From a virus (taxonomy: Duplodnaviria > Heunggongvirae > Uroviricota > Caudoviricetes), in the IMG/VR virus record IMGVR_UViG_2529292874_000015: DNA of 7,007 bases. One strand, 5' to 3'. The translations under genes were made by a program, and so were the position numbers. How positions within the stretch are numbered: position 1 is the stretch's first letter; each line of letters begins with the position of its first letter. Positions 1-6,857 of this stretch are shown here, piece by piece. The notes under the pieces were generated by a model. It saw only the letters and a list, made by a program, of their open reading frames with translations. It searched no databases and was not told the DNA's origin.

Positions 1-183
1 ATAATCACGACCATCACGCGGAACAGGAATATGGCTTACCGCCTCCTTCACCATCTGTTCAAGCATCGGACGCACATCATCGGGGGTAATACTTTTGCCG
101 TCCGCCGGTACCGGAATATTCGCAACCGCATCATTCACCGCCTGCTGCAGTACATCCGGATCATAATCACGACCATCACGCGG
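1..183. repeat. Coding tandem repeat: 21-bp perfect direct repeat (1..21 and 163..183) marking a 162-bp periodic repeat
   Basis: ataatcacgaccatcacgcgg occurs at 1..21 and 163..183; ggtaccggaat recurs at 108..118 and 182..192; corresponds to the IPVP(R/A)DG protein repeats of the minus-strand ORF. Confidence 0.7.
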
Positions 184-408
184 TACCGGAATGGCCCCCA
201 CAGCATCATCCACCATCGCCTGCAGAACCGGACGCACCTCATCCACCGTCACATGCTTCTGTAATACCACAGACAGGGAAGCCAGTTTCTCTTCAAACGC
301 TTGTGCCTGCGAGGCCATCTTCCCCTCAAATGTGCGCTGTAAATCCGCCAGCACTGCGGAAAATTCTTCACCCAGCGCACGGATAATGGACAGTTCACGT
401 TCATTCAT
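1..408 (-). CDS. Partial ORF (start at 408, 3' end beyond the left edge): tandem-repeat protein of unknown function, translationally coupled to the portal gene
   Basis: Minus-strand frame is open for all 136 codons from ATG 408..406 to position 1 (my own translation: MNERELSIIRALGEEFSAVLADLQRTFEGKMASQAQAFEEKLASLSVVLQKHVTVDEVRPVLQAMVDDAVGAIPVPRDGRDYDPDVLQQAVNDAVANIPVPADGKSITPDDVRPMLEQMVKEAVSHIPVPRDGRDY...). ATG overlaps the TGA (407..405) of the upstream portal frame as ATGA; purine-rich AGGGGGA about 10 nt upstream. Absent from the supplied ORF track, probably because it has no stop codon inside the window. Confidence 0.6.
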   Translation of the reverse strand, partial: MNERELSIIRALGEEFSAVLADLQRTFEGKMASQAQAFEEKLASLSVVLQKHVTVDEVRPVLQAMVDDAVGAIPVPRDGRDYDPDVLQQAVNDAVANIPVPADGKSITPDDVRPMLEQMVKEAVSHIPVPRDGRDY

Positions 409-845
409 TTTTTCAGAATCCCCCTGAACATCGCCTTCACCGCATCATGCTCTGTTTCAGTGATTGCCTTATTACCGTCAGATGCGCCGTCAGGCGGTTG
501 CGCTAAGGCCGTTTTCCCGGTCGACGCGAACGGATCTTCACGGGCATCACGACGGGACAGCGCCTCCAGACTGTAGTTCTGCTGCTGAAGATACAGTGCA
601 TCACCGCCGGCAAGGGGCGGCAGGTTCTCACGTTTACGGGCCTCATTGGGCGTGAGAAGCGTATTTTTCACCGACTCACCCAGCGTTTTCATGCGCCGTT
701 CGCTGTCCATTCTCAGCAGCGTGGTGACGTCAAACTCCGTGCTCTCGTTTTCCCCCGTTTCCAGCGCCTCATCCAGTAACAGCTCAATGGACTCAATCAG
801 CGTCTGCAGACACTGGGAATAATACTGCTGCTCCAGCGCCTCCAC
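405..845 (-). CDS. Portal protein, C-terminal segment (separate frame from the main portal ORF; frameshifted gene or assembly indel)
   Basis: 146-codon ORF (GTG at 845..843); the frame is actually open from 914. Sequence (N)VEALEQQYYSQCLQTLIESIELLLDEAL... continues the portal family C-terminal region that follows the conserved FRVP.Y.IG block found in the 797..1936 frame; acidic low-complexity tail; stop is ATGA-coupled to the next gene. Confidence 0.6.
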   Translation of the reverse strand: MEALEQQYYSQCLQTLIESIELLLDEALETGENESTEFDVTTLLRMDSERRMKTLGESVKNTLLTPNEARKRENLPPLAGGDALYLQQQNYSLEALSRRDAREDPFASTGKTALAQPPDGASDGNKAITETEHDAVKAMFRGILKK

Positions 846-1936
846 GTTGTCACTGGAAGGCGGTGGCCAACGCCAATCTTGTAGGCCGGGACACGGAACA
901 CCGAACAGACAATTTCAGCGGTCATCTTCAGTTGTTCCACCGTCTGCGCATCCACCGGTGAAAACGTCGTGGGGTTGTATTTTGCCCCGTTGCTCAGAAT
1001 GGCCGTTTTCCCCGCATTTTCGCCGGTATACCCGCTGTCCCAGTTGCTCTTCAGTTTTTTCGCATTTTCTTCCGTAATACTGCCGGGGATCTCAATCACC
1101 CCGGACGGCCTGCCGCCATTTCTGAAAAAAGACGTCGAATTTTCCTGAATATGATGCCCCTGCGTGGCCGCCAGCCCGGCGGCATACACCGGCGGCAGCC
1201 CCACAAGCGGATGAAAAAAACAGTTAAACCGGTCGTGGATCACTTCCCTGGCAGGCACCGTCACCGCCTCCGTGATCCCGCAGTTCCGGTCCGGTGTAAT
1301 GCGATAGAACACCTCGCCGTCATCCGCCACCAGAGGTTCAACCCGGCTCCAGTCCAGAATACGCAGTTCTTTGATCTGCCCCCGGGAGTTACGGATTTTC
1401 AGCACCACCGTATTGCCGTGACGCAGTTTGGAATTCAGCCACAGTTCAAAAAACTGGATGCGATTCTGCTGTGCATTAGGACGACGACAGAGACGGGCAG
1501 TATCTCCCTGCCGCTTTTCCCGGCGTATTCCCTGTACATCAGTCTGCATCAGGCGAAGCCGCATTTTGGCAATATCCTGGGATATCAGCGAAATGCATGA
1601 AAACACCGCGTGAAAGGACAAAACGGTTTCCGGATCGGCTTTCACACCCTGCTGCCAGGCACCGGCAAAAGGCTCAGCCACCGCCTGAAACAGGGACCGC
1701 CAGCCCACTTCTCTTACGTCACGTCCTGATTTCTGGTTTTTTCGGGTTCGCCGCAAAAAGGTTCCACATTCGCCATGCTCCGCATCATGTTTCTTTTTCT
1801 GACCCGCCGGACGTCGCGCTGTGATGTACTCCGCCTTCCTCAGGCGAACCAGCACCTCCGCACACGGCTGTGCGACATCACGGATATCCCCGGCCCGGGC
1901 ATCATGCGTGCCCTGCAGATATCGGATCTTTGCCAT
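797..1936 (-). CDS. Phage portal protein, HK97 family (main body; native C-terminus continues in frame of 405..845)
   Basis: 379-codon ORF, ATG 1936..1934. Core blocks LSFHAVFSCISLISQDIAKMRL, FFRNGGRPSGVIEIPGSITEENAKKLKSNW and EQLKMTAEIVCSVFRVPAYKIGVG match the conserved portal (Phage_portal-type) motifs as I recall them. The last ~22 residues (HRLPVTTWRRWSSS...) look non-native and the first ~60 residues are compositionally atypical. Confidence 0.8.
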   Translation of the reverse strand: MAKIRYLQGTHDARAGDIRDVAQPCAEVLVRLRKAEYITARRPAGQKKKHDAEHGECGTFLRRTRKNQKSGRDVREVGWRSLFQAVAEPFAGAWQQGVKADPETVLSFHAVFSCISLISQDIAKMRLRLMQTDVQGIRREKRQGDTARLCRRPNAQQNRIQFFELWLNSKLRHGNTVVLKIRNSRGQIKELRILDWSRVEPLVADDGEVFYRITPDRNCGITEAVTVPAREVIHDRFNCFFHPLVGLPPVYAAGLAATQGHHIQENSTSFFRNGGRPSGVIEIPGSITEENAKKLKSNWDSGYTGENAGKTAILSNGAKYNPTTFSPVDAQTVEQLKMTAEIVCSVFRVPAYKIGVGHRLPVTTWRRWSSSIIPSVCRR

Positions 1937-1980: not shown

Positions 1981-3663
1981 TCAGCCGCCGGACGCACTGC
2001 CGTAGTTCACTCCGGTGATCACCGCCACCGCCGCGGTACGGCGACGACGCCAGTTGATCCAGCGCTCCGCACGGATGGCCACACTGCCTGTCTGGAACAT
2101 GGAAACCAGCTCCACCGGCGACGGCGTGGTACTGTCGCCGCCCGGCTCAGACTGCATTTCCAGTGATGCCTCGCGGGACATATCCACTGCCACGCCGCCG
2201 TCATCCGCCAGATAAATATCCGGGGCATTCACCAGCACCAGCTGGTCACCCACGTACTGGGAGACAATCACCGGCAGCCCCTGGAAGGTCCCGCCCAGCA
2301 GGGTCATGTCCGGATATTCCTTCTGACCCAGCGCATTTTTACGCATGGACAGCGCCAGGGCATTCGTGCTGGACATCAGCCAGACCGCACCGGTGGGCTG
2401 CAGATTTGCCGTCACAAACTGGCCAAACGCGGCCTCGGCATCCGCATCCGGATTACCGCTTGACGCCGTGCCCTTCACATCATGGGTGATGGACGCCGGG
2501 GAGACATCCGCCACCGCCGCTTTTTTCGGGTCCACAAAGTCTGTGTCCAGACGCGCCACCACCGCTTCTGCCAGCGCATTACGGACCAGCGCATCAGCTG
2601 CCGGACTGGAAAAACGGATCAGCTCTTCCGTCAGTACCGCAATGGCCGACACCTTCGCATGACTGAAGGTGATGGATTCAAAATCAAACTTCGTCAGGGG
2701 TCTGGCCTTACCCTCCCCCACCCAGCCGGCAGCACCACCGGACACCTGGGCATGCACGCGGATATTGAACGGCACCTGACGAAGTGCAGGGATCCCGCCC
2801 TGACCAAATCGCCCGATAATGGTCTGCGGACGCAGGTAATCAATAAAGTCCTGCGCATATTCCTGGTATTCAGACAGGCTGCCTGCCCACTGCGGGTCCG
2901 TGGTGGTCCCTGCCCCCACCGCCGATTTCAGGACATGATGCAGACGGCTGTCATCCGGATACTGACGACGGGCCACTTCCAGGGCTTCAGAGCGGACACC
3001 TTTAGCCGCGGCCAGTGATTTGGCAAAGCGGGCGAAACCAATCCCCTTCTCCAGTTTCTGCTCAACACGGATCACCGGCGCTGAAGCCACCGTGGCCACA
3101 TTCCCGTTACCGGCCTGTTTCACCGGCTGTGCCGTGGCGGCCTTACTGGTTTCCAGTTCACGCAGACGCTTCAGGTGCGCATCCACCTGACGGATTTCCG
3201 CTGCGGTGTTGTCGTAATGCTCTTCCTCCTCCACATCCAGCGTGCGCCCTTCCTCTGCGGCTTTGGTCATGACCTCCTCAAGGGAGGCTGCCAGTGCTGC
3301 ACGCTTGTTTTCAAAACTTTTAATCTGTTCGCCAATATTCATTATGGTCTTTTCCTTATGAAAAACGGTTGTTGACTGTGCCGCAGCGCCGGCAGAAGAT
3401 GCGATTTTCACCACCGGTTTCCGGTTGCCGGACGCGGCAGAAAACGGGCGGTCGTAAGATTTAATGGTCCGGATGGTGCATTCCGCATTCGCGGGCACGG
3501 TGACGGCAGACACCTCCATCAGCTCCCAGCGCAGAAAATGCAGTCCGCCTCCGTCCAGAAAGGTGTATTCATGAGGACGGAAGCCCACGGACAGCCCCCT
3601 GACCAGCCCGGTCTTAATGGCCGCCCAGGCCTCATCCAGCCGGGCAGCCAGTTGCGATGGCAT
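1981..3663 (-). CDS. Prohead protease (C-terminal half) + scaffold-like delta region + HK97-fold major capsid protein in one reading frame
   Basis: 560-codon ORF. Residues 1-60 (…IKTGLVRGLSVGFRP…LMEVSAVTVPANAEC) resemble the Ser-motif half of HK97-type prohead proteases; residues ~108-200 are a charged coiled-coil-like region (MNIGEQIKSFENKRAALAASLEEVMTKAAEEGRTLDVEEEEH…RLRELE) typical of capsid delta/scaffold domains; the remainder is capsid-like (…ITFSHAKVSAIAVLTEELIRFSSPAADALVRNALAEAVVARLDTDFVDP… and C-terminal …VSMFQTGSVAIRAERW…). Internal AAGGA (3357..3353) + ATG (3342..3340) could also start a stand-alone capsid protein. Confidence 0.85.
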   Translation of the reverse strand: MPSQLAARLDEAWAAIKTGLVRGLSVGFRPHEYTFLDGGGLHFLRWELMEVSAVTVPANAECTIRTIKSYDRPFSAASGNRKPVVKIASSAGAAAQSTTVFHKEKTIMNIGEQIKSFENKRAALAASLEEVMTKAAEEGRTLDVEEEEHYDNTAAEIRQVDAHLKRLRELETSKAATAQPVKQAGNGNVATVASAPVIRVEQKLEKGIGFARFAKSLAAAKGVRSEALEVARRQYPDDSRLHHVLKSAVGAGTTTDPQWAGSLSEYQEYAQDFIDYLRPQTIIGRFGQGGIPALRQVPFNIRVHAQVSGGAAGWVGEGKARPLTKFDFESITFSHAKVSAIAVLTEELIRFSSPAADALVRNALAEAVVARLDTDFVDPKKAAVADVSPASITHDVKGTASSGNPDADAEAAFGQFVTANLQPTGAVWLMSSTNALALSMRKNALGQKEYPDMTLLGGTFQGLPVIVSQYVGDQLVLVNAPDIYLADDGGVAVDMSREASLEMQSEPGGDSTTPSPVELVSMFQTGSVAIRAERWINWRRRRTAAVAVITGVNYGSASGG

Positions 3664-3919
3664 ATCCGGCTACGGGCTTCACCAGTGTTGCCGTGATTTC
3701 CAGCCCTTCGCTGACCCGGCGCACCGTACACTGGCCCCACAGGGCGGGAATGGTCATGCTGCCAGAGAAACGGGATCGCACTGCCAAACTCCGCCCCTCC
3801 GGCTCCAGGATGTCACCATCCCGATCCGGAGAAGGCGTTGACGCAATCCCGGTGATCACCCGTTCATCCTCGCTGAAGGATTTCACCGTCAGCAGGGAAC
3901 AGGCCCGTTTAAGAGTCAC
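3632..3919 (-). CDS. Prohead protease, N-terminal segment (frame-disrupted relative to the downstream protease/capsid ORF)
   Basis: 95-codon ORF starting GTG 3919..3917 with AGGAGG 5 nt upstream; N-terminus …FSEDERVITGIASTPSPDRDGDILEPEG is protease-like, but the frame then lacks the catalytic His block, which is encoded in the adjacent frame (LWQHD at 3767..3753). See findings. Confidence 0.65.
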   Translation of the reverse strand: MTLKRACSLLTVKSFSEDERVITGIASTPSPDRDGDILEPEGRSLAVRSRFSGSMTIPALWGQCTVRRVSEGLEITATLVKPVAGYAIATGCPAG

Positions 3920-3931
3920 ATCAGCCTCCTG

Positions 3932-3957
3932 AAAATAAAAAAACCGCCGCAGCGGTT
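3932..3957 (-). terminator. Possible weak intrinsic terminator/attenuator between terL and the protease gene
   Basis: On the minus strand, 25 nt after the terL stop: AACCGC-UGCG-GCGGUU (6-bp stem, 3957..3942) followed by UUUUUAUUUU (3941..3932), then AGGAGG and the GTG start of the protease gene. Confidence 0.35.
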
Positions 3958-3982
3958 CATGATGGTTACAGGGTGAACAGGG

Positions 3983-5662
3983 TTATATGAAAAAAACCGC
4001 ATATTCTTTCTTTTTCGGCTCCGGATTCAGGGACATCAGGGATACCGCATTGAAGAGCGCCATCAGCGGGTCAATTTTCCCCCGTCCGCTGGCCTGTTTG
4101 GTAATAAGGATAGCGTTACCTTTAGGCTCCACCCGGGCATTGCCAACGCACCAGGCCATCAGTGGCTGACCACCATGCACCAGTACTCCCTCAGCCAGTT
4201 TGCGCTCGGTGGTTTTTATGGCCCCGCCCAGCTTCCAGCCCTGGCTTATCCCCACAACAATTCCGTCGGGGATCCCGGCTTCCGCCAGTGAATCCAGAAT
4301 CTGCCCCACACCTGACGGGTCAATACCGATATGCTCCAGTAACTCAGCCTCATGAATACGACGCACATACTCCGCCACTTCCGCCGTGTCATCCCCGACC
4401 CGACGGACAATCGTCATGTCTCCACAGGCCACAAAATCCTGAAAACGGGATGCCTCACTCTTCCGTCTGACCACCGCGGTTTCATGCGCCCAGGCATGGC
4501 CCCAGCCCAGCCATTCGCGGGTTTCCCTGTCACGGCCAATCACGTACATTCCCAGCAGATCATCCAGGCCCCCGCCGTCAATCCCCACCGTCACCACATC
4601 AGCGCGCTGCAGGATATCGTCCAGGCTGACGCGCCTGCCCTGCTGCTCCCAGAAATCCGCACCCGCCCAGCGGTCAGAACGCAGGGCAAGACCAATTTCC
4701 ACATTGGCATGTTTTGACATGAAGCCACGAAATGCTTCCTCACCAGCCTCCCGGGCTTTACGGTACTCCCGGTACAGAAAAGCCTCATCCACCGAATAAC
4801 CGAGATTCGGATTGACCATGGCGAGGTTTTCCATCAGCAGGTGAGCCCCGCTTTCCACCATTTCAGGAGGGTGTTCAAATATCACCGGCAGAAAGTGCGG
4901 ATCATGAATTTTGCCGTCACGGACATCCCGGGCGTACTGCAGTTTCTGTCTGAACACCCCGGCTGGCGGCTCATTCGACTGGGTGGTCGTATACACCACA
5001 AACCCTTCCGGGCGGGAGGCAAGGCCGCCTATGGCTTCACGTAACATGTCCTCCGCCTTGCACTGCTTGCCAAACAGCCACAACTCATCAATCAGCGTAC
5101 CCACGGACTTGATACCGGACACCGTATTCGGATCGGCTGCCACCACCTTCAGGGTGGTGTCCGTCACCCGGTGGGTGATGGTCCGGATATGTGTCTGTAC
5201 CTGGCAGAGGTCATCCAGATCATCGTCCCGTCGTACCATATCCCGGGCAGGGTTGAAGGCGTTAGCCGCCACCTCCACGGTCGGGGCCAGAATCGTGTAA
5301 CCCGCCGCCTGCCGCCAGTTCAGTAACAGTGCAGTCATCATGATCCCCGCGGCCAGCGTGGACTTCGAGTTTTTCTTGGGGATAAGGATAAACACTTCCT
5401 TGATATGGCGAACACCGGTCTGCGCATCGTAGGAGCCAAACAGGGCCGCCACCAGGTCAAACACCCACGGTGCACAGGACTCCCCGAATGTCGGGCTACC
5501 CGGTGCATCCACAATCCGCAGTTGTTTAAAAATCGCCAGGGCATGTGCAGCCTGTCCGGATAAATCGGAGCCGGAATAATCGACAGCCCCTTTTTCAGGC
5601 GCTCTGCCCAGTCCGGGCAGGCCGTGCTCCACACAGGTATCATCCGTTGCCCTCATTATCAT
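3983..5662 (-). CDS. terL: Terminase large subunit (Terminase_1-like)
   Basis: 559-codon ORF, ATG 5662..5660, overlaps the terS stop by 23 nt; Walker-A-like FILIPKKNSKSTLAAGI near the N-terminus; C-terminal nuclease-like half (…VTVGIDGGGLDDL…, …HIGIDPSGVGQ…); position directly after terS. Confidence 0.9.
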   Translation of the reverse strand: MIMRATDDTCVEHGLPGLGRAPEKGAVDYSGSDLSGQAAHALAIFKQLRIVDAPGSPTFGESCAPWVFDLVAALFGSYDAQTGVRHIKEVFILIPKKNSKSTLAAGIMMTALLLNWRQAAGYTILAPTVEVAANAFNPARDMVRRDDDLDDLCQVQTHIRTITHRVTDTTLKVVAADPNTVSGIKSVGTLIDELWLFGKQCKAEDMLREAIGGLASRPEGFVVYTTTQSNEPPAGVFRQKLQYARDVRDGKIHDPHFLPVIFEHPPEMVESGAHLLMENLAMVNPNLGYSVDEAFLYREYRKAREAGEEAFRGFMSKHANVEIGLALRSDRWAGADFWEQQGRRVSLDDILQRADVVTVGIDGGGLDDLLGMYVIGRDRETREWLGWGHAWAHETAVVRRKSEASRFQDFVACGDMTIVRRVGDDTAEVAEYVRRIHEAELLEHIGIDPSGVGQILDSLAEAGIPDGIVVGISQGWKLGGAIKTTERKLAEGVLVHGGQPLMAWCVGNARVEPKGNAILITKQASGRGKIDPLMALFNAVSLMSLNPEPKKKEYAVFFI

Positions 5663-6203
5663 TATTCACCACCAGGCGGGGTGGTGGTGGCACCGCAAAA
5701 CGGTTAGCCGCTTTTTTCGCCGCGTCACCTTTTGCCGATTTTTTACCGGCATCCCCTTTTTTGTGGTGCGTGAACTGCGCCAGCTTATAAGCCGCATCCA
5801 GCGCCAGCCTGGGGTCGGTATTAATGTTCTCCACCAGAAGACGCCCCATCGCTTTCACCGGATCGGGAAGACCGTCCTCCATATACTCAATACCAGGAGA
5901 TATCACCACGGGCGGTGGCATCTCCGGATTTGTTTCGTCCGGCTGTGGTATTGCAGCCGCCTCACGGCGACGGGGTTTATCCTCCTGCTCTGATTTTTTC
6001 TGCCGGTAAACAGGAACCTCATCCACCTCCACCGTCTCGCACTGTTTACGGGCTATAAACGCAAGCACCTCCGGATCTTTTGCCAGCTGCGAGCCTTTAA
6101 CCCTGGCGGTCTTCGCCGAATAACCGGCGGCAATGGCTGACGCTGTTTTGTTTTTCCCGGACATGAGCGCCAGCGCAAATTTTCGTTTTTGCGTTGTCAG
6201 CAC
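5640..6203 (-). CDS. terS: Terminase small subunit (helix-turn-helix N-terminus, P27/Terminase_2-like)
   Basis: 187-codon ORF, GTG start 6203..6201 preceded by GGAGGAGG; N-terminal LTTQKRKFALALMSGKNKTASAIAAGYSAKTARVKGSQL is the characteristic DNA-binding helix-turn-helix of small terminases; basic/Pro-rich C-terminal tail; immediately upstream of and overlapping terL. Confidence 0.8.
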   Translation of the reverse strand: MLTTQKRKFALALMSGKNKTASAIAAGYSAKTARVKGSQLAKDPEVLAFIARKQCETVEVDEVPVYRQKKSEQEDKPRRREAAAIPQPDETNPEMPPPVVISPGIEYMEDGLPDPVKAMGRLLVENINTDPRLALDAAYKLAQFTHHKKGDAGKKSAKGDAAKKAANRFAVPPPPRLVVNNDNEGNG

Positions 6204-6401: not shown

Positions 6402-6491
6402 CCCTGAAACGGGAATTTTTTCTCTGCGTGAGAGGGGGCGCGGTGTCCGGAGCGATCGTTTTTTTCGCCGGATGATCCCCCCCGAGTCTGG

Positions 6492-6857
6492 TCACAGTCC
6501 GATGATATCGTCTGCCCTGCCATGACCTCCGGACACCTCCGGCAGCGTCGGGTCCGGCATACCACCCGCCGCTTCACGAGCAGACTTCTGTCGATGGCAT
6601 TCGGTACAGAGCGTCCAGAGATTCGTCTCCTCATTACCACCACCGAACTGAAGTGCAATTCGGTGATCGAGTTCACTGTCACAGAGGTCAACCACGCGTC
6701 TACAGAGACAACAGTGTCCGGCATCCCTCCGCCAGATACGACGTTTGAGGGAAACCCGGGCACTGCCACTGACACGACGCTGTTCCCCCCTCAGGACATT
6801 TATCCGCCGGGTGTTCAGAGTTTTGATTCTGCCCGGTAACGTACGAAGCACAGCCAT
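6492..6857 (-). CDS. HNH endonuclease (phage packaging-associated)
   Basis: 121-codon ORF, ATG 6857..6855 with GAGGA 6 nt upstream; HNH/zinc-finger motif HCCLCRRVVDLCDSELDHRIALQFGGGNEETNLWTLCTECHRQK (C-x2-C … DH … N … C-x2-C-H); located immediately upstream of terS, as in cos-type HK97-like phages. Confidence 0.85.
   Translation of the reverse strand: MAVLRTLPGRIKTLNTRRINVLRGEQRRVSGSARVSLKRRIWRRDAGHCCLCRRVVDLCDSELDHRIALQFGGGNEETNLWTLCTECHRQKSAREAAGGMPDPTLPEVSGGHGRADDIIGL

Follow-up and report, generated by a model that had tools for sequence, protein, structure and literature searches.

The window, meaning the whole 7,007-nt stretch of DNA analysed here, carries all its genes on the minus strand: HNH, terS, terL, a protease-capsid gene, a small ORF and the portal gene. 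The features needed below are these:

405..1936, minus strand: small 73-aa ORF and HK97-type portal (Pfam Phage_portal on both pieces; annotation of relatives)
1981..3048, minus strand: HK97-fold major capsid protein body (aa ~291-645) and stop codon
3049..3342, minus strand: delta (scaffold-like) domain, with helices at aa 195-223 and 229-262 and a flexible segment (AlphaFold)
3340..3342, minus strand: internal ATG, M193 of the intact protein; putative start of a stand-alone 453-aa delta-capsid protein
3343..3486, minus strand: disordered, hypervariable Ser/Ala/Gly/Lys-rich linker (aa 145-192)
3352..3357, minus strand: internal Shine-Dalgarno-like AAGGAA, 9 nt 5' of the internal ATG (direct sequence reading)
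3487..3919, minus strand: HK97-type prohead protease domain (Peptidase_S78; aa 1-144 of the intact protein), here in three frames
3671, minus strand: 1-nt insertion (T), third protease frameshift; the frame of the 560-aa ORF starts downstream (MAFFT alignment against L001)
3733, minus strand: 1-nt insertion (G), second protease frameshift (MAFFT alignment against L001)
3793, minus strand: 1-nt deletion (C missing after this base), first protease frameshift (MAFFT alignment against L001)
3919-3917, minus strand: GTG start of the full-length gene, downstream of AGGAGG
3925..3930, minus strand: Shine-Dalgarno (SD) AGGAGG of the full-length gene (direct sequence reading)
3983..5662, minus strand: terminase large subunit (Pfam TerL_ATPase, TerL_nuclease), frameshifted near its N-terminus

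In intact relatives the position between terL and the portal gene is occupied by a single CDS of 1938 nt, which encodes 645 aa: an S78 protease of the HK97 type comes first, then a disordered linker and a delta (scaffold) domain, and last an HK97-fold capsid protein. The relatives' annotations are 'major head protein/prohead protease' or 'phage major capsid protein', and PHROG 617 spans residues 1-639 of the intact protein. The domain reading made in the original prediction (protease, linker, delta, HK97-fold capsid) was right, with both Peptidase_S78 and Phage_capsid found by Pfam, and the single fused ORF that it described is real in these relatives. A fusion of about 644-648 aa is kept in many Enterobacterales genera, and the gene was fused in most of the top 150 representatives of 50%-identity clusters, down to 38% identity.

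The protease domain was recognized on an intact relative by Pfam PF04586 (residues 48-153, 32.8 bits, cut-off 21) and by PHROG 80 (head maturation protease, E=8e-42); TIGR01543 scored 46.5 bits, under its cut-off of 59. On the 560-aa ORF of the window PF04586 gave 22.9 bits (cut-off 21). AlphaFold placed a confident domain at residues 1-144, and the catalytic residues H55 (LWQHD) and S110 (GLSVGF) were at least 90% conserved in 63 homologues. Residues 145-189 of the linker had pLDDT values below 50, and the alignment of homologues showed the linker to be hypervariable in both length and sequence. The delta helices (195-262) were predicted with high pLDDT, and profile positions 198-272 aligned to residues 4-76 of the 385-aa major head protein of PDB 9gyi (E=6e-10). 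For the capsid body, PF05065 scored 54.9 bits (cut-off 24.2) and TIGR01554 79.4 bits (cut-off 27.5), and Foldseek matched the Bxb1, D3 and HK97 capsid proteins with E-values from 5e-15 to 1e-10; phmmer with the 645-aa protein gave no match among PDB sequences. Profiles, fold and helices together identify an HK97-fold capsid protein with an N-terminal delta domain.

The copy in the window is interrupted. Its stretch 1981..3919 is 1939 nt long, which is not divisible by 3, and the ORFs lie in three different frames: 3632..3919 (95 aa), 3519..3740 (73 aa) and 1981..3663 (560 aa). The original prediction had placed protease, delta region and capsid in one frame. [quoted passage not shown] Because of the protease indels, the catalytic-His segment (PFLWQHD) is out of frame with the N-terminus and with the remainder, including the segment that holds the catalytic Ser. 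Once the three protease indels are mended, a 645-aa ORF reappears that differs from the relative at 10 aa. As written, the window copy cannot make an active fusion: over its N-terminal half the protease is thrown out of frame by the three 1-nt indels. The 453-aa capsid ORF from the internal start is intact in the window.

In total, six frameshifting indels were found in the window, three of them in the protease domain. The terL indel (-C) is at 5554, with the true N-terminus within ORF 5338..5643, an indel (+A) at 1755 joins the small ORF to the portal, and another (-C) at 863 breaks the portal. None of the protease indels, nor of the other frameshifts, was found in the 1251 matching complete E. 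coli genomes, and an exact look-up of the 560-aa product of the window returned no record. The frameshifts and their absence from those genomes speak for a window copy that has lost all function, a pseudogene left over from a defective prophage, independently of what intact members of the family do, and we give this reading an even chance. It is opposed by the substitutions against a relative, which are still strongly purifying (47 synonymous and 11 non-synonymous) and from which it follows that the indels are recent or artefactual. Several indels also lie within or beside short homopolymers, as expected from sequencing or assembly errors, and the capsid ORF from the internal start has stayed open. 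Two readings of the window copy remain: a prophage copy in decay, or a sequence that contains errors. Programmed frameshifting in the protease was also considered and rejected, as only the window has the three indels and the ORF is intact everywhere else. For annotation it matters that gene callers give one 'major capsid protein', or pieces where the gene is frameshifted.

Over its whole 7 kb the window shares 96-97% DNA identity with the head module of long-tailed Stx/EHEC lambdoid prophages. This module was found in 1288 of 5426 complete E. coli genomes, and identity of 96-97% across 100% of the window was seen in 1242 E. coli genomes and 91 phage records; the phage records matching the window numbered 94, mostly of Stx-converting phages. 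Near-identical DNA and the same gene order (HNH-terS-terL-capsid-portal) characterize it as a Sawaravirus-like head module, and a search of the window against Rfam gave no match. Judged by its sequence, the window is a slightly damaged copy of an ordinary head-gene block from long-tailed prophages of the Shiga-toxin type in E. coli. Known phages of this closest group, among them Stx2a_WGPS2 (NC_049941, genus Sawaravirus), 2851 (gp17) and YYZ-2008, have the same genes, order and 645-aa protease-capsid protein and differ from the window in its six indels. As a sequence feature it is routine: pathogenic E. coli has no commoner head module among its long-tailed prophages, and the window adds a damaged copy of it.

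The order terS-terL-[protease-capsid]-portal was read correctly, with terL (3983..5662) upstream and the portal (405..1936) downstream. It had been taken as unusual and as a possible mark of a distinct head-module lineage, with the reservation that it would be unremarkable if it proved to be the norm for a well-known phage group. That is what we found. The protease-capsid fusion architecture is already known and has long been annotated in the common E. coli group described above. In a search for related loci seeded with a 13-sequence alignment, TerL lay upstream in 76 of 77 loci and the portal was the first large downstream ORF in 64 of 76. Judged by these loci, a fused gene placed between terL and the portal is standard in a family found across Proteobacteria, Pseudomonas phage PAJU2 included.

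A link to capsid-forming satellites had also been suggested. The order differs from that of HK97, the window alone shows a tail-less HNH-terS-terL-capsid-portal block, and the profile match to 9gyi falls in the delta region of the capsid protein of the cf-PICI EcCI2. The cf-PICIs EcCIEDL933 and EcCI2 indeed have HNH, terS, terL, an HK97-type capsid protein with a delta domain, a protease and a portal, with weak profile similarity to the window family in the delta region. In Proteobacterial cf-PICIs, however, separate capsid, protease, portal and connector genes come in that order and are followed by hnh-terS-terL, with int/alpA/rep and without tails (bioRxiv 10.1101/2022.09.08.507074). The order here is HNH-terS-terL-protease/capsid-portal, and the 96-97% identical relatives are complete prophages. 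Connector, tail and lysis genes adjoin the module in all relatives examined, with a tape-measure gene beside it as well; the window itself ends within the portal region and at the HNH gene. The same order was found in the isolated phages PAJU2, vB_FKKS2 and Mcat6. A cf-PICI identity was rejected on gene order and on the tail genes of the relatives, and that the module belongs to such a satellite or to a new head-module lineage is highly improbable.

Of the earlier remarks on this DNA, the one that survived best was that an internal start could yield a stand-alone capsid protein. The AAGGA at 3357-3353, the ATG at 3342-3340 and the 453-aa length of the product were confirmed, and comparative evidence strongly backs a putative start at this site. 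A start codon is present exactly at the start of the delta domain in 75 of 76 fused homologues (ATG in 70). SD cores or tetramers peak at -15 to -10 in 48 of 61 non-redundant loci, compared with 0-6 of 61 in neighbouring windows. Among homologous loci the SD core occupies all three codon phases, and the 18 nt preceding the start encode 49 different hexapeptides. The anti-SD duplex energy upstream of the internal start had a median of -5.8 kcal/mol versus -2.5 for 984 control in-frame ATGs, with a Mann-Whitney p-value that is inflated by the phylogenetic relatedness of the loci. The gene's own upstream start, which has a strong SD at the homologous site in relatives, had a median of -8.3 kcal/mol, to which the internal start is comparable. 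Capsid-only relatives begin exactly at the internal-start position, and in the split relatives L061, L069, L075, Burkholderia vB_FKKS2 and Moraxella Mcat6 the capsid gene begins at the same point. A conserved ribosome-binding site and start codon are found here within a long ORF, and the retention of the start codon together with an SD core conserved in all codon phases argues for a nested gene. Conservation argues for an internal start that is probably functional; a literature search turned up neither proteomics nor ribosome profiling on the two products, for any family member.

The same junction may be read as a relic of a separate capsid gene, with the 645-aa fusion as the sole product and a protease on every capsid subunit. 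In its favour, thousands of genomes carry the ORF whole and unbroken, in Enterobacterales the stronger SD belongs to the upstream start, and the split relatives show that the junction once was, or elsewhere is, a true gene start. Yet next to a hypervariable linker the start codon and SD core persist, the SD with constant spacing and in every codon phase. A neutral relic would be expected to have decayed at 38-50% protein identity. We regard an obligate polyprotein as unlikely. An SD and ATG inherited from a split ancestor could last for some time without function.

Our favoured reading, which we consider likely from the conservation described, is that the S78-protease/delta/HK97-capsid fusions of Proteobacterial phages are nested genes and that the full-length protein serves as a covalent carrier that brings a fixed dose of protease into the procapsid. 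Ribosomes initiating at the upstream GTG would produce a minor protease-delta-capsid fusion, and those initiating at the conserved internal SD and ATG (3342-3340) a major 453-aa delta-capsid protein. The E. coli copy has a weaker SD at the internal start (AAGGAA) than at the upstream one (AGGAGG), and capsid-only protein might therefore not be the more abundant of the two products in that case. The two proteins would co-assemble through their capsid and delta moieties, and by these shared moieties the protease would enter the procapsid covalently and not by a docking tail. It would then cut away the linker, the delta domain and itself to leave the mature shell. Domain content, conservation of the fusion, synteny and a conserved internal ribosome-binding site were observed directly in the sequences; from them we infer the two products, their ratio and the cleavage. 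A literature search found no paper that states the nested-gene reading for this family. An internal start of this kind, if real, explains how the ratio of protease to capsid is set in phages with a protease-capsid fusion. Taken together, an EHEC-type head-shell gene with a nested gene inside it, in a copy that is damaged or error-containing here, is the best joint explanation of the window, and we hold it with good confidence.

A named counterpart is ORF003 of Pseudomonas phage PAJU2 (AP009624), 'prohead protease fused capsid protein', which is a full-length homologue (47.5% identity over residues 1-642) and is labelled a structural protein in the record. PAJU2 has the same order (terminase, fused gene, small ORFs, portal, ~335-aa ORF) but differs in host and genus (Detrevirus) and in the length of the protein, 667 aa. 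The split relatives (Burkholderia vB_FKKS2, Moraxella Mcat1-9, L061, L069 and L075) have a homologous protease and capsid protein at 35-43% identity, in the order terL-protease-capsid-small ORF-portal, where a stop codon closes the protease gene 12-100 nt short of the capsid start; both genes share one frame in L061, L069 and L075.

The architecture is also found in a different sequence family. In MD8 a single gene encodes protease, scaffold and capsid protein (PMC8508860), an arrangement described as 'common in small-genome siphoviruses' (PMC9671004). MD8 combines a lambda-C-like protease with a Mu-gpT-like capsid protein, unlike the window family. The profile NF045541 (prohead protease/major capsid protein fusion protein) scored 53.5 bits against a cut-off of 525, which indicates a different sequence family with the same architecture.

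With HK97 gp4 and gp5 the window family shares an S78/TIGR01543-like protease, a delta-domain and HK97-fold capsid protein (TIGR01554; Foldseek) and the HNH/terS/terL packaging set. In HK97, where protease and capsid have separate genes downstream of the portal (terL-portal-protease-capsid), the protease docks non-covalently; in the window family a single fused gene precedes the portal. In lambda C/Nu3 and herpesvirus UL26/UL26.5, a long protease product and a shorter product from an in-frame internal start have a common C-terminal assembly domain, which brings the protease into the procapsid; what the two products share is scaffold alone, and a gene of its own encodes the capsid protein. In the present family the shared part is scaffold plus capsid protein, with the internal start deduced from sequence. 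If the proposed mechanism is true, it would extend the nested-gene logic of these systems to scaffold and shell in one polypeptide and would provide a bacterial-phage counterpart of UL26/UL26.5 in which the capsid protein itself is the shared module.

All real genes of the window were found on the minus strand with ORF listing and Pfam, as follows:

6492..6857, minus strand: HNH endonuclease
5640..6203, minus strand: terS
3983..5662, minus strand: terL, whose true N-terminus lies out of frame with it (5338..5643)
1981..3919, minus strand: protease-capsid stretch
797..1936 and 405..845, minus strand: small ORF fused to HK97-type portal
Only the start inside the window, minus strand: further ORF, running off the window

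The order terS-terL-[protease-capsid]-portal had been predicted correctly. The whole window was 96-97% identical to a module found in 1288 of the 5426 complete E. coli genomes; the median number of matching places per genome was four (one for a shorter query from the protease region, window 3560-3940). Phage records also matched it (94), most of them from Stx1a-, Stx2a- and Stx2c-converting phages. The equivalent stretch in relatives is one intact CDS of 1938 nt (645 aa), labelled 'phage major capsid protein', 'major head protein/prohead protease' or 'phage prohead protease'. Adjoining genes in relatives encode head-tail connectors, tail tube, chaperones, tape measure and a lysis cassette, and these tail and lysis neighbours indicate a complete lambdoid prophage rather than a satellite. 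Proteobacterial cf-PICIs carry separate genes ordered capsid-protease-portal-connectors and then hnh-terS-terL, and are without tails (bioRxiv 10.1101/2022.09.08.507074).

The peptides and linker quoted in the original prediction were correct, but a single frame over 1981..3919 (1939 nt) was wrong for the window sequence. A 95-aa ORF runs on the minus strand from a GTG start at 3919 to a stop at 3632. A second frame (ORF 3519..3740) holds the catalytic-His segment PFLWQHD. The third has the 560-aa ORF, which does not begin until 3663 and encodes what remains of the protease together with the linker and the capsid protein. Alignment with an intact relative (locus L001) located three indels in the protease (-C at 3793, +G at 3733, +T at 3671), one at the small ORF/portal start (+A at 1755), one in the portal (-C at 863) and one in terL (-C at 5554). 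The last of these shifts the frame of terL; the true TerL N-terminus (MIPVWSTACPDWAERL…) lies in ORF 5338..5643 (minus), and the listed 559-aa terL ORF opens with out-of-frame residues (window 5338-5662, minus). The poly-C tract at 6476 (window 6470-6480), in the HNH-terS intergenic region, was three bases shorter in the window (C7 vs C10 in L001).

Repair of the three protease indels restored a 645-aa ORF with 10 residue differences from the relative. The nucleotide differences, 47 synonymous and 11 non-synonymous, indicate purifying selection until very recently, or that the indels are sequence errors. Of the complete E. coli genomes matched by the query window 3560-3940, 1251 in number, not one has the protease indels, and an exact protein look-up of the truncated product gave no record. 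Judged by its reading frames, the window copy as written cannot make an active fusion, and terL and the portal are by the same alignment likewise broken. The window copy would belong either to a prophage in decay or to an assembly with errors. The homologous protease-capsid gene of an Arsenophonus insect endosymbiont (L047, 6001-7928) is also broken into short ORFs, apparently because the prophage is decaying in a reduced genome.

Some features of the neighbouring genes were also recorded. A small 73-aa ORF (PHROG 829, unknown function; window 1714-1936, minus) lies between the capsid and portal genes; in relatives it overlaps the portal start by ~55 nt, and in the window the +A at 1755 joins it in frame to the portal. 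Phages PAJU2, vB_FKKS2 and Mcat6 likewise have a small ORF here. The length of a G-run sets the portal as one ORF or two (window 405-425, minus; loci L002, 5185-7769, and L088, 12435-15020). With G6 (TTCAGGGGGGATACTG) the portal is a single ORF of 779-861 aa; with G5, carried by the window, the portal is 454 aa long and its stop codon overlaps (ATGA) the ATG of a second ORF of ~407 aa. The split form is labelled 'frameshifted' by PGAP and given as two 'portal proteins' in phage records; polymorphism, slippage or another nested arrangement could account for the difference. In the ORF that follows the portal, or in the portal C-terminal extension, a unit of 162 nt (54 aa) is repeated in tandem 3.3 times at 98% identity (window 1-404, minus; L002, 5651-6183). 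Portal length ranges from 670 to 861 aa across genomes, which suggests that the copy number varies. The repeat-bearing ORF matched no Pfam family, with only a weak CBM_5_12-like C-terminal match. A terminator-like hairpin with a T-run (GAACCGCTGCGGCGGTTTTTTTATTTTC; window 3931-3958, minus) lies between the terL stop and the protease-capsid AGGAGG. The T-run directly ahead of the SD recurs in Enterobacterales relatives, and a locus with split genes, L069, has a similar hairpin between protease and capsid.

The placement of the fused gene had been regarded as unusual. This was not borne out: fusion and order are both widespread in relatives and are the norm for a well-known phage group, which the original prediction had named as what would make them unremarkable. 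A fusion of ~644-648 aa is kept at 73-78% identity in Salmonella, Enterobacter, Klebsiella, Serratia, Pantoea, Kosakonia and others, and among the 150 top-ranking representatives of clusters at 50% identity the majority are full-length fusions, with identity down to 38%. We sampled 80 genomic loci from Enterobacterales, Pseudomonas, Rhizobiales, Paracoccus, Burkholderiales and others. TerL was the ORF directly upstream of the fused gene in 76/77 loci and the portal the first large downstream ORF in 64/76. Pseudomonas phage PAJU2 has the same arrangement, its ORF003 being recorded as 'prohead protease fused capsid protein'. MD8-like Pseudomonas phages have a protease-scaffold-capsid fusion of another sequence family (PMC8508860), and in actinobacteriophages such fusions, again of other families, are said to be 'common in small-genome siphoviruses' (PMC9671004). 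The window-type protein does not reach the cut-off of the named NCBIfam fusion family, NF045541. For this very common prophage group, neither the architecture nor the order is new or out of the ordinary.

In the intact protein, Pfam placed Peptidase_S78 at 48-153 and Phage_capsid at 386-635; catalytic His55 and Ser110 are conserved at ≥90%. With NCBIfam, major_cap_HK97 scored above and proheadase_HK97 just below cut-off, and PHROG 617 ('major head protein', a 626-position profile) spans residues 1-639. In the AlphaFold model (mean pLDDT 82), a confidently predicted protease domain (1-144) is followed by a disordered linker (145-189), a delta domain of two long helices (195-223 and 229-262) and then the capsid body, which resembles Bxb1, D3 and HK97 capsid proteins by Foldseek. 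With a profile from 63 homologues, positions 198-272 align with residues 4-76 of PDB 9gyi, the 385-aa major head protein of the cf-PICI EcCI2 capsid.

The predicted internal AAGGA (3357-3353), ATG (3342-3340) and 453-aa product size were all correct, and this ORF is intact in the window copy. Across aligned homologues the linker is hypervariable in sequence and length, and nearly every fused protein has Met (rarely Val) exactly at the delta-domain start; the five capsid-only representatives begin at this same residue. A start codon was found there in 75/76 fused loci (70 ATG, 3 TTG, 2 GTG). Anti-SD pairing of the 18 nt upstream had a median of -5.8 kcal/mol, with 93% reaching -4 or better, as compared to -2.5 kcal/mol and 26% for 984 other in-frame ATGs of the same genes (p=3e-30, inflated by relatedness of the loci). 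The internal site is comparable to the gene's own start (median -8.3 kcal/mol), and stronger in many alpha- and gammaproteobacterial loci, e.g. ccgAAGGAGGgcacgggaATG.

After de-replication to 61 loci, SD tetramers (GGAG, GAGG, AGGA) began at -16..-7 in 48, with a sharp peak at -15..-10, as compared to 0-6 loci in equal-sized neighbouring windows. The GGA core is not tied to one codon phase (20, 7 and 26 loci for the three), and translation of the 18 nt upstream gives 49 different hexapeptides, which indicates constraint on RNA, not on protein. The main rival explanation, an obligate polyprotein in which SD and ATG are a relic, is unlikely, as it is disfavoured by this position-specific, phase-independent conservation. 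In distant split relatives (L061, L069, L075, Burkholderia phage vB_FKKS2 and Moraxella phage Mcat6) the protease gene ends in a stop and the capsid gene starts at the same point, with the same kind of SD. This putative ribosome-binding site, conserved inside the gene, is of modest interest and can be tested.

The observation in the original prediction was partly confirmed overall and its interpretation partly supported. No protein-level evidence for a nested gene pair was found in the searchable literature; such a pair is the most likely mechanism suggested by the sequence comparisons. A long product of 645 aa (protease-linker-delta-capsid) and a short one of 453 aa (delta-capsid) would co-assemble via their common delta and capsid parts, bringing the protease into the procapsid without a separate docking interaction, and the protease would afterwards cut away the linker, the delta domain and itself. 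The same nested-gene logic is used by lambda C/Nu3 and herpesvirus UL26/UL26.5; unlike in those systems, the proposed common part here would include the shell protein.
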